NCBI RefSeq assembly: GCF_000092465.1
Contig: NC_014205.1
Span: 660,001-692,000, forward strand
Length of the DNA stretch: 32,000 nucleotides
Reading direction: 5' to 3'
From: Staphylothermus hellenicus DSM 12710
GTDB taxonomy: Archaea > Thermoproteota > Thermoprotei_A > Sulfolobales > Desulfurococcaceae
Part shown: positions 20,616 through 23,455 of the stretch, piece after piece
How positions within the stretch are numbered: the stretch's first letter is position 1
Layout of the letters: the number at the start of each line of letters is the position of its first letter
Made by a program: the position numbers and the translations under genes
The notes under the pieces: generated by a model
The model's input: the letters and a program-made list of their open reading frames with translations, nothing else
Database searches by the model: none
What the model was told of the DNA's origin: nothing

Positions 20616-20837
20616 ATAGAACACCATATGAATTCTACAATAATTTCTTAATATGCCATAACAATAATAAAATTACCACAGCACTGTTCTCGAAGATAAG
20701 GTTAAATAGTTAGAAGACACAAGCCACTATTCCTTTATATATTTTTCCCTAAACAAACATCTCCTCGTGTAATAGTCGACTCTTATCTCTGTTTTTGAAG
20801 ATAGGCTTATAGTGAAAGTCAGGGTTGAGTGTTATAT

Positions 20838-21596
20838 ATGAGCGAGTTTAGAATAGTATATAAGAGGAAGAAAACATATCGGAAAGCATTAATTTATTTT
20901 CCCATAGTATTAGTTGTCTCAGCTATTTTATTAACTATTATGACAATGTTTGAATATGCAATTTATTTGATCCCATTAGCGGCTGTTCCAATAATTGGTT
21001 TGGGAATTAAAGAATTAAAGATCAGTATAAGAAAGGAGAGAATAAGGAAAATAATGGAGAGAGTTAGGAAAACTATAGAATTAATTAATCACAGCTATAT
21101 TGTATTGAACAAGTCTGTAAAGTATTCTCTCGGATACATAGTTGTAGAGGAGAAAAGCACAGGAGCGAACAGAGACAACCATAGAAGTGTTTATAGAGAA
21201 TTTGAAGCAATAAAAACGGGTGAGTCTAATAAGATACCTCTAAATATTAACTTTTTAAGTAAATACACTATCATGGTTGACGAACTGGGCAATGGCTATG
21301 TTAAGTTACCGGCAATTCTTTTCCAAGACAAAACTATATCTAACGGTCTATTAGTTCTCATTCCGAATAATACCTTGTTTAAATCTTTTGAAAACACCTT
21401 CAAGTTTAAGCTTGTTTCCGGCGATGAAATATATTTGTATACAAAGATTAACCGTGATGTTTTAAATGGTAAACTAATATATACTACAAGACATAAAAGC
21501 TTAGCAGCAAAACTGATCCTTACAGGAACAATTGAGAATACAAAACTATTTAATAAGTTAACCGTGAAAAAAAAACCATATACAATGCCACCGTAA
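20838..21596 (+). CDS. hypothetical membrane protein (two N-terminal TM helices); annotated stop probably not the original C-terminus
   Basis: TM segments ALIYFPIVLVVSAILLTIMTMF and AIYLIPLAAVPIIGLGI, followed by a soluble region with no motif I recognise. Ends ...KLTVKKKPYTMPP* immediately after an A9 run. Confidence 0.6.
   Translation: MSEFRIVYKRKKTYRKALIYFPIVLVVSAILLTIMTMFEYAIYLIPLAAVPIIGLGIKELKISIRKERIRKIMERVRKTIELINHSYIVLNKSVKYSLGYIVVEEKSTGANRDNHRSVYREFEAIKTGESNKIPLNINFLSKYTIMVDELGNGYVKLPAILFQDKTISNGLLVLIPNNTLFKSFENTFKFKLVSGDEIYLYTKINRDVLNGKLIYTTRHKSLAAKLILTGTIENTKLFNKLTVKKKPYTMPP
21567..21575 (+). other. A9 homopolymer (slippery A_AAA_AAA context) 7 codons before the stop of the 20838-21596 ORF
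   Basis: Read directly: gtg aaa aaa aaa cca tat aca atg cca ccg taa. Confidence 0.9.
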
Positions 21597-21847
21597 CCGG
21601 CACACATAATCTTGTCATAGGACTCAATATTTCAGAGCCCTTAGCAATAATATCGCATCTAGAAGAAATAACACTTCACGACATAGTATGTCCGATCAGT
21701 AGGTATGATAGGAACTATAACGGATCAATTATTTATGGTTTTACACAGGGAAAATATAAGTTAAGATTAGAGCTAAGCTTACCCTTCGAACCCAATAAGA
21801 GCGTAGAAGAAACAATAGATCTTGATAGATTGATTTTTAGTTCATAA
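21576..21847 (+). other. continuation of the upstream ORF in the -1 frame (about 90 stop-free codons with no internal start)
   Basis: The -1 frame from the A-run reads (KK)TIYNATVTGTHNLVIGLNISEPLAIISHLEEITLHDIVCPISRYDRNYNGSIIYGFTQGKYKLRLELSLPFEPNKSVEETIDLDRLIFSS*, with stop TAA at 21845-21847. There is no ATG/GTG/TTG near its 5' end, so it cannot be an independent gene. Confidence 0.55.
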
Positions 21848-21918: not shown

Positions 21919-22227
21919 ATGGTAGATGAATATATTAGGTCTCTTCAAACACCTGATCTTCTACCTAGTAATTGGTACAATATCTTGCCTGATCTACCAG
22001 AGCCCATTCCTCCAATGAAGCTTGGAACAGGTGAAGTAGTAAGGCCTGAAATGTTAGAAAAATTATTTACTCGTACAGCTGTTAAGCAAGAGTTTAGCAT
22101 GGAGAGATACATAAGTATACCCAGCGATCTCCGAGAAACATATCTAGAAATAGGCAGGCCAACACCACTGCCCAGAGCAAAGCGTTTAGAAGAATACTTG
22201 AATACTCCTGCTAAAATCTATTATTAA
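21919..22227 (+). CDS. trpB2: TrpB2 (tryptophan synthase beta-like) N-terminal segment, as translated up to the TAA
   Basis: MVDEYIRSLQTPDLLPSNWYNILPDLPEPIPPMK...YLEIGRPTPLPRAKRLEEYLNTPAKIYY*. Homology continues past the stop as YEGVT (22228-22242). Confidence 0.85.
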   Translation: MVDEYIRSLQTPDLLPSNWYNILPDLPEPIPPMKLGTGEVVRPEMLEKLFTRTAVKQEFSMERYISIPSDLRETYLEIGRPTPLPRAKRLEEYLNTPAKIYY

Positions 22228-22246
22228 TACGAGGGAGTAACCGTTT

Positions 22247-22296
22247 GTCCCTACCGTGTCATTCTGTATATTTTTGTTTGTGTCCACGGTAGGGAC
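22247..22296. repeat. perfect 12-bp inverted repeat (hairpin with a 26-nt AT-rich loop)
   Basis: GTCCCTACCGTG (22247-22258) pairs with CACGGTAGGGAC (22285-22296). Confidence 0.95.
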
Positions 22297-22305
22297 TTCC
22301 ACCTC

Positions 22306-22335
22306 CCCCATAGTCTTCGAGAAAAGACTATGGGG
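22306..22335. repeat. perfect 12-bp inverted repeat (hairpin with a 6-nt loop)
   Basis: CCCCATAGTCTT (22306-22317), loop cgagaa, then AAGACTATGGGG (22324-22335). Confidence 0.95.
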
Positions 22336-22477
22336 TCATGGGCGGCTGTCGAGGCCAACGGCACGGGCCTCCCATCTACAGCAAGCCCCATGGGTCTCGG
22401 AGCATAGCTCCCATCAACCCACAGGGACATAGATCAATACAAGAAAACATAATCTGAAATATTTAAAGCTTACTACC

Positions 22478-23455
22478 CCTACTGGTAGCCATAAAATCAA
22501 TACTGCACTAGCCCAAGCATATTATGCTTTTAGAGAAGGGATCACTAGATTAACCACTGGGACCGGTGCGGGGCAATGGGGCTCAGCACTGAGTCTTGCA
22601 GGATCAATGTTTGGATTAAAAATAACTGTATACATGGTTAGAATAAGCTATTTACAGAAACCATACCGTAAAACCGTTATGGAGCTATATGGTGCAGAAA
22701 TATATCCTAGCCCCAGTGAAAAAACCGAGATAGGTAGAAAACTACTCTTAGAAAACCCTGATCATCCTGGAAGCTTAGGTATAGCAATAAGCGAAGCAAT
22801 ATGGGATGCAATGAATAGTGTAAACACAAAGTACTCCCTAGGATCAGTCCTGAACCATGTCCTACTACACCAGACAATAATTGGGTTGGAAGCAAAGAAG
22901 CAACTTGAAGAAATAGGTGTTTACCCCGATATGGTTATAGGATGCGTTGGTGGAGGAAGCAATTTTGCAGGAATAACATATCCGTTCATAAGGGATAGAT
23001 TGAAAAACTCCAGCAATACCAAGTTCGTAGCTGTAGAGCCAGAAGCTGCTCCGTCAATGACGAGGGGAGAATATCGTTACGACTATGGAGACTCGGCAGG
23101 CTTAACTCCTCTAATCAAAATGTATACTCTCGGATACAAATATATACCGCCACCCATACATGCTGGAGGGCTAAGATACCATGGATTAGCACCGTCGCTA
23201 AGCATATTGGTGAAGCATGGAATAGTCGAACCTAGAGCATATCCGCAGAAACAAGTATTTGAAGCAGGCAGAGTATTTGCTAGAATAGAAGGAATAATCC
23301 CCGCACCCGAATCAGCACATGCAGTAAAAGCCGTTATTGATGAAGCAATAAAAGCCCGTAGAGAAAACAAGGAAAAAATAATATTGTTCAATCTAAGCGG
23401 GCATGGATTGCTAGATTTGAAAGGATACCGTGATTTCTTAGACGGAAAAATATGA
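22478..23455 (+). CDS. trpB2: TrpB2 C-terminal segment (carries the PLP-lysine motif); first ATG only at 22607
   Basis: [65 protein letters not shown]...[11 protein letters not shown]...GGLRYHG...PAPESAHA...[11 protein letters not shown]. The frame is open from 22433, but no start codon precedes the catalytic-Lys motif. Confidence 0.85.

Follow-up and report, generated by a model that had tools for sequence, protein, structure and literature searches.

An interrupted trpB2 gene

The window (the whole stretch of DNA that was analysed, 32 kb) carries trpB2 on the plus strand in two segments. In translation the 5′ segment, 21919–22242, reads ...RAKRLEEYLNTPAKIYY, stop, YEGVT, and the second one, 22478–23455, runs open to its stop in a different frame. 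With 235 nt removed, the two are joined in frame as ...YEGVT/PTGSHKIN... (slashes mark junctions throughout) and give 433 codons. A preliminary description of the locus had reported these coordinates, the differing frames, the 235-nt gap and the 433 codons, and translation confirms them. The break lies in the Thr-Pro codons within the PLP-lysine motif, and the 3′ fragment contains neither further stops nor frameshifts.

Since ACC (GGT) is present at both junctions, the ends of the insert are ambiguous by 3 nt, and 22241–22475 is equivalent to 22243–22477. We use the boundaries 22241–22475, which are chosen by comparison with the element family described below, with CC at 22241–22242 as part of the element. 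The junction GG is then found at 22241–22242 and 22476–22477. The features of the locus are collected in Table 1. The GC content is 49% in the insert, 62% in its core and 36% in the window. Folding of the insert is far stronger than that of shuffled sequences on both strands, with the larger excess on the minus strand (z = -5.5).

Table 1. Features at the interrupted trpB2 locus, in window coordinates.
Feature	Position	Strand	Basis or remark
trpB2 5′ fragment, codons 1–107 and first base of codon 108	21919..22240	+	translation; alignment with intact 433-aa orthologs
Predicted omega-RNA guide, 5′-UUACUCCCUCGUAUUAAUAA	22221..22240	-	position relative to right-end terminus
In-frame TAA nonsense codon 103 (Lys103→TAA)	22225..22227	+	AAA in orthologs
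Inserted element, 235 nt, protein-less miniature of IS607 type	22241..22475	-	blastn; family boundaries; empty site in orthologs
Omega-RNA (reRNA) scaffold, as judged from sequence, and right end GGGACAAACGG, GG = 22242, 22241	22241..22418	-	nhmmer E = 2.4e-44 against family profile
Putative repeated segment, with copies elsewhere in these samples	22241..22429		Logan contig ends
Terminal hairpin at right end (helix 6), 12-bp perfect stem	22247..22296	-	covaries across family
59-codon remnant ORF, TnpB C-terminal tail	22251..22430	-	BLASTP
AT-rich left-end remnant with archaeal TATA-like box TTTAAATA at 22460–22467	22430..22475	-	sequence reading
trpB2 3′ fragment, PTGSHK... to stop	22476..23455	+	translation; Pfam PALP match
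Glu136→Gly	22559–22561	+	Glu in 120/120 homologs

The insert is not the only lesion of the gene. The TAA codon lies outside of it, 16 nt upstream of the junction, at a position where all 120 homologs have Lys, and the truncated product of 102 aa is also encoded in Logan contigs from two runs. The preliminary description held that removal of the insert exactly rebuilds the lysine motif and the reading frame. This is true, but it does not give an open gene, as the TAA at 22225–22227 is left. The intact sister ortholog has the other unusual residues of the window trpB2 without Lys103→TAA or Glu136→Gly. Branch counts give 16 nonsynonymous and 35 synonymous substitutions on the window trpB2 branch, against 9 and 33 on the sister branch, and are no more than suggestive of relaxed selection on the former. 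The TAA and the Glu136→Gly change belong to the evidence against splicing given below, and we therefore conclude that trpB2 is here a pseudogene of fairly recent origin, damaged in three places: by the insertion, by the TAA instead of an invariant Lys and by the Gly instead of an invariant Glu.

Orthologs with an empty site

With the rebuilt protein as query, thousands of TrpB2-type proteins are found, the best match having 91% identity and a length of exactly 433 aa. No insert interrupts the junction in the closest orthologs, which are 88.6% (L015/L016) and 74% (L017) identical at the nucleotide level. Their DNA across the junction reads ...GAAGGAGTA/ACCCCTACTGG... with nothing between, a context also given as ...TATTATAAATATGAAGGAGTA/ACCCCTACTGGTAGCCAC...; read on the minus strand, the site without the insert is GTAGGGGTTAC. 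The alignment of orthologs that had been proposed as a check thus finds the site empty. The K-Y-E-G-V-x-P-T-G-S-H-K block is unbroken among 120 homologs, as the preliminary description had stated of such a block in TrpB2 proteins; it is nearly invariant, and the ORF is uninterrupted in 120/120. Since the motif is contiguous in the orthologs and nearly invariant in the homologs, the in-frame rejoining of trpB2 is not a matter of chance.

The insert is homologous to the right ends of IS607-type transposons

In a sensitive blastn search of plasmids, nucleotides 1–174 of the insert match the 3′ end of tnpB of Pyrococcus abyssi pGE2 on the opposite strand (72% identity, E = 2e-19); the matched gene is annotated as IS200/IS605-family TnpB. 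In phages, blastn matches the insert core to the annotated MITE-SMN2 of Sulfolobus virus SMV1 (HG322870). In minus-strand orientation the insert, the pGE2 copy and SMN2 have a common end, ...GGGACAAACGG, and diverge beyond it. The homology of the insert to archaeal IS607-type elements covers their last ~190 nt, on the minus strand. The 59-codon remnant ORF is 60% identical over 47 aa to the C-terminus of a 434-aa TnpB (L004; BLASTP, E = 7e-17).

The conserved core GAGSCCCGTGCCGTTGGSCTCGA is present at four loci in three archaeal MAGs, namely an Acidilobaceae MAG, a Thermodiscus MAG (two loci) and a Desulfurococcaceae MAG, and at not less than 120 metagenome loci. The family members come from hot-spring metagenomes and MAGs. 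About 100 copies among the matches listed have TAGGGACAAACGG as their end, with flanks beyond it that are unrelated; all-against-all alignments break off at the same terminal base. As about 100 family copies end at that base, the right end of the window element is placed at 22241.

The full-length relatives are ~1.9–2 kb long and carry the gene of a serine recombinase (YARVSS motif; Pfam Resolvase and HTH_17) and, after it, that of TnpB, which has a Pfam Cas12f1-like TNB domain in L004 and L021. With a serine recombinase and TnpB they are IS607-type rather than IS605-type elements. Among the listed matches with enough upstream sequence, ~31 members have a tnpB ORF of 300 aa or more and ~49 have only short ORFs. 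The short forms are protein-less minis of 250–265 nt and make up roughly half of the family among these matches. The left ends of the full-length elements recur unchanged in these minis, as GG/GCTGAATCC... (SMN2-like group) and GG/GCTGTTTCGTAGTTGATG.... Of 52 independent insertions, 50 have GG directly before the left end; T or G is preferred one base further out. IS607 elements are known to require GG strictly as core dinucleotide, to use a TGGG-like target, to lack inverted repeats and target-site duplications, and to excise without a scar (PMC10690162). SMN elements are known as gene interrupters (PMC3839810), and protein-less minis which retain the omega RNA have been described for IS200/IS605 (PMC10055086). 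Judged by these alignments, the right end of the insert is that of IS607-type (tnpA + tnpB) elements, as in a miniature derivative of the SMN type.

The classical MITE hallmarks, terminal inverted repeats and a target-site duplication, are both absent from the window element. It has internal hairpins only, and the ACC “repeat” at its junctions is GG plus one chance base, not a target-site duplication. The preliminary description expected such duplications of a MITE-type insertion; the IS607-type family makes none.

The preliminary description preferred a spliced intron of the bulge-helix-bulge (BHB) type, akin to that of cbf5, which would yield functional TrpB2. The precedent exists in Crenarchaeota (PMC2738675), and such an intron would agree with the restored frame and PLP-lysine motif and with the clean 3′ fragment. 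The proposed search for a BHB at the junction, made as a simplified geometric scan, gives no motif: among junction-spanning, frame-restoring pairs 235 nt apart, the central helix has 0–2 of 4 pairs. The sole 4/4 central helix of the scan has no flanking helices and would leave the lysine motif unrebuilt. The TAA at 22225–22227 would survive splicing, Gly would still replace the invariant Glu136, the closest orthologs have an empty site and the ORF is whole in every homolog, and the insert is homologous to transposon ends lying antisense to trpB2. The cbf5 intron and the window insert both interrupt a crenarchaeal protein-coding gene; however, the former is flanked by a BHB, is common to related lineages and leaves the gene otherwise intact, and none of this is true of the insert. 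We consider the spliced trpB2 intron extremely unlikely.

The insert retains an omega-RNA scaffold

The alignment of the putative scaffold in 43 sequences has six helices with 97.1% of cells paired, compared with 31–46% when the partners are slid. Compensatory changes are found in 18 of the 37 scaffold pairs, and none of 500 shuffles reaches the observed values. The window copy retains all six helices and has compensatory pairs of its own. Frequent U-G pairs fit only the minus strand and indicate it as the RNA strand. On this sequence evidence, 22241–22418 is the omega-RNA scaffold as expected over the tnpB 3′ end and the right end. The TATA-like box TTTAAATA in the left-end remnant might serve as its promoter, so far as sequence motifs indicate, and the predicted omega RNA would be transcribed antisense to trpB2.

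Known RNA families are absent from the whole window in Rfam at gathering thresholds. At E ≤ 10 the region 22150–22560 gives a single match, a chance miRNA hairpin, and the tRNA/tmRNA scan finds nothing. Group I and group II introns were considered as separate candidates and rejected, with no model match in Rfam at gathering thresholds in the window or at E ≤ 10 in the insert.

The last result also bears on a phenotypically silent insertion of the IStron kind, that is, an IS605/IS607-kind transposon with a self-splicing group I intron. IS607-family IStrons of Clostridia splice from the genes they interrupt (PMC10690162), and the insert does belong among IS607/TnpB elements. Against this stand the missing group I/II match across the insert, its length of 235 nt only, and the upstream TAA, which stays. 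Moreover, because the element is antisense to trpB2, the trpB2 transcript would hold the reverse complement of the element RNA. The probability of an IStron is negligible in our estimate, lower even than that of the BHB intron.

The left end and possible further copies of the element

The left end of the window copy is atypical. Every other left end examined begins with GCTG or GCAG, while the canonical terminus GG/GCWG is absent from the window copy, which begins with TAGTAAGC or GGTAGTAAGC. Its left end has no match among the fetched family loci; L004 and L021 are cut or 5′-truncated, and therefore the left end of the parent is not available from either. The window copy looks 5′-truncated. 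It may be immobile, or may be the product of an aberrant or in-situ event. The missing GCWG lowers our confidence in its present mobility, not in its descent from the IS607-type family. As a separate observation, the minus-strand target GTAGGGGT is similar to the interior of one family left end.

Logan assemblies contain parts of the same locus. Contigs L139 and L140 (SRR3925462, SRR3925463) include the left junction with 28–30 nt of the insert and stop at 22270, and contig L001 starts at 22400 and includes 76–78 nt of the insert and the right junction. With k assumed to be 31, these two contig ends correspond to k-1 overlaps, which points to 22241–22429 as a collapsed repeat. One end of this segment is the right end of the family and the other is the start of the tnpB homology. 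Probably, at least one further copy of the identical right-end part is present in the sample, perhaps in this very genome, and the same contig ends suggest that the left-end part 22430–22475 is single-copy there.

Further copies were also sought elsewhere. The 32-kb window contains neither an extra copy of the element (blastn, nhmmer) nor tnpB at another position. Exact look-up of the two small ORFs of the insert in the assembly index gives no record, and the 58-aa TnpB-tail peptide as protein query gives no candidates. A window-specific 21-mer finds only ~75%-identical archaeal relatives and chance bacterial matches in GTDB genomes, and window-specific 25-mers find no match in JGI metagenomes and IMG/VR. 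The nearest relatives of the insert found are ~75% identical.

A misjoin of a repeat into trpB2 during assembly would be conceivable here, as misjoins arise at repeats and, in the Logan assemblies, the insert core behaves like a repeat that has been collapsed. Yet both junctions are found in separately assembled Logan contigs, the left one in L139 and L140 from two runs and the right one in L001, and the trpB2 halves adjoin the two proper ends of a single element, which is correctly oriented. An assembly artefact is, in our view, highly improbable.

The repeat boundaries matter as well for how the short form arose. A full-length ~1.9–2 kb IS607-type (tnpA + tnpB) insertion in trpB2 might have been deleted later to 235 nt, so that the element never transposed as a mini. 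This is a variant nested in the explanation given below and not a contradiction of it. It would agree with the Logan break points, which imply sharing of 22241–22429 only, with 22430–22475 and the deletion junction apparently single-copy; no identical mini copy is found in the collections searched, and differently truncated family copies do occur (for example, the second copy in L096). On the other hand, a purely internal deletion would preserve the GG/GCWG terminus, which is missing here, and the family is rich in ready-made minis of 250–265 nt. Deletion of the terminus in place is unlikely, because the trpB2 flank beside the left end is complete down to the last nucleotide. Decay in place is thus a minority possibility, which we consider rather unlikely.

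Proposed origin of the insert

We suggest that the insert is very probably a non-autonomous miniature derivative of the IS607 family, of the Sulfolobus SMN or PATE-like kind, which lies on the minus strand and inactivated trpB2. An insertion that killed the gene was the alternative offered in the preliminary description, and it is the one borne out, the insert being an IS607-family miniature.

The element would consist of a short AT-rich left-end remnant with the TATA-like box, joined to the terminal ~187 nt of its parent. The ~187-nt part would comprise the right end and the C-terminal codons of tnpB, which serve at the same time as omega-RNA scaffold. The Thr-Pro codons of the PLP-lysine motif contain a GG, and the element would have entered there, in the style of transposition by a serine recombinase (TnpA), without target duplication. 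As transposition of the TnpA type makes no target duplication, deletion of the insert rebuilds the trpB2 sequence exactly at the site. The window copy has no tnpA or tnpB, with 59 tnpB codons only, and hence is unable to move or cut alone; it was presumably mobilised in trans by a TnpA serine recombinase.

This makes the locus similar to the SMN elements. SMN2 is annotated in the virus SMV1 (HG322870) and in plasmid pMGB1 and interrupts plrA (PMC3839810, PMC3718332). It shares with the window element the right end and the core GAGSCCCGTGCCGTTGGSCTCGA, and both interrupt genes; neither SMN nor the window element has terminal inverted repeats or an ORF of protein size, and what ORF there is amounts to a small remnant. 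They are also of one size class, SMN1/SMN2 being 251–320 nt long (PMC3839810, PMC3718332) and the window element 235 nt. However, SMN2 and the window element are only ~82% identical over a 45-nt core and divergent elsewhere. The window element is without the SMN2 terminus GG/GCTGAATCC, and its host is a Desulfurococcales-like crenarchaeon of ~36% GC, whereas that of SMN is Sulfolobus.

With the IS607 transposons (the pGE2 copy; CboIStron/IS607, PMC10690162) the window element has in common a homologous right end and omega-RNA region, GG as the core dinucleotide at both junctions, the absence of target-site duplications and inverted repeats, and a target rebuilt by scarless removal. It differs from them in having no tnpA, no more of tnpB than the remnant codons and a non-canonical left-end terminus. 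PATE-like IS200/IS605 minis of Geobacillus (PMC10055086) also consist of ends and omega RNA without a protein and depend on TnpA/TnpB in trans. Unlike the window family, with its serine recombinases and GG, they use a Y1 tyrosine transposase via ssDNA and a defined 4–5-nt target/TAM.

An archaeal protein gene seemed to contain a clean in-frame “intron”; this is here corrected to a transposon insertion of the scarless type. For IS605-/IS607-type insertions without target duplication, clean restoration on deletion is expected and is no evidence for splicing. The trpB2 case is an ordinary transposon insertion with a pseudogene, of a kind already known, and it adds a Desulfurococcales-like member to the very abundant omega-RNA-bearing miniature IS607 derivatives of hot-spring archaea.

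The predicted guide and possible homing

The guide of the omega RNA would be the 16–20 nt beyond the right end, from 22240 to 22221, which is trpB2 sequence; its function is reasoned from published TnpB biology (PMC10055086, PMC10690162). With such a predicted guide, the locus is a natural case for the question whether TnpB can service minis in trans. The base that makes the TAA, 22225, is position 16 of the guide/target, and TnpB cuts in a zone 15–28 nt from the TAM (10.1101/2023.03.06.531077). The position of the TAA within this zone may be a coincidence. Speculatively, the mini makes a working omega RNA with which TnpB, supplied in trans, cuts uninterrupted trpB2 near the GG, so that insertion and loss of a metabolic gene spread in the population by homing; we find this doubtful, less probable than decay in place. 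If it were true, the TAA at guide position 16 could be the scar of a repair or a mutation that escapes such cutting.

Parentage and structure of the element family

The left end GG|GCTGAATCC... and the right end of the SMN2-type minis, named after the Sulfolobus miniature element of the same family, are both common to full-length elements encoding a serine recombinase and TnpB, as follows from the comparison of ten minis (L022, L039, L044, L067, L069, L076, L110, L111, L118 and L134) with L003:1415-1667. Therefore, the parent of the SMN2-type minis is of the IS607 type. This differs from the earlier proposal, made in a 2013 paper, that an IS200 transposase mobilises them.

The window copy is without the first ~12-25 nt of a canonical left end. 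The trpB2 target GTAGGGGT together with the first bases of the element TAGTAAGCT (window 22468-22490, minus strand) resembles the interior of a family left end, TTTAGGGGTTAGGTTTATAAGCT, when compared with group-B left ends such as those of L060 and L082. An internal GG may have served as the site of recombination.

At L005:2350-2630, in a Thermodiscus MAG, GCTATTCTA comes immediately after the right end ...AAACGG, and the left end of the same mini begins with this sequence as well; such a right end-GG-left end junction points to a copy in tandem or to an arrangement like a circle junction. The 1.3-kb contig L096 carries a second copy of the omega RNA, the guide RNA of TnpB (L096:1100-1279), whose 5' truncation lies elsewhere and in which a recognisable left end is absent. 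Thus, variously truncated copies exist in the family of the window element. Many family hits among L019-L138 lie a few hundred bases or less from the end of a contig; a repeat of high copy number, at which metagenome assemblies break, would be expected to show this.

Lesions in trpB2 and the adjacent gene

The TAA in trpB2 is created by an A-to-T substitution at window 22225, 16 nt from the right end of the element. In the predicted omega-RNA guide/target this corresponds to position 16, within the range of distances at which TnpB enzymes cut; the substitution could have arisen as a repair scar or as an escape mutation, or its location could be coincidental. Glu136 of TrpB2, which belongs to the TETGAGQWG block and is present in 120 of 120 homologs, is replaced by Gly at window 22559-22561. 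With the insertion and the TAA, it is the third inactivating-type lesion of the gene.

The gene immediately upstream of trpB2 is frameshifted. Its 340-aa ortholog from L015, a close ortholog locus, aligns to the window in frame +1 through residue 253, whereas the part from residue 249 on aligns in frame +3, and in separately assembled Logan contigs the gene is called at 252 aa, truncated in a similar way. Hence, a second disrupted gene adjoins the trpB2 pseudogene.

Coordinates of the disrupted gene next to trpB2
Feature	Position in window	Break	Evidence
Frameshifted gene, immediately upstream of trpB2	20829-21596, continuation to ~21845	~21570-21600	Alignment with L015 ortholog
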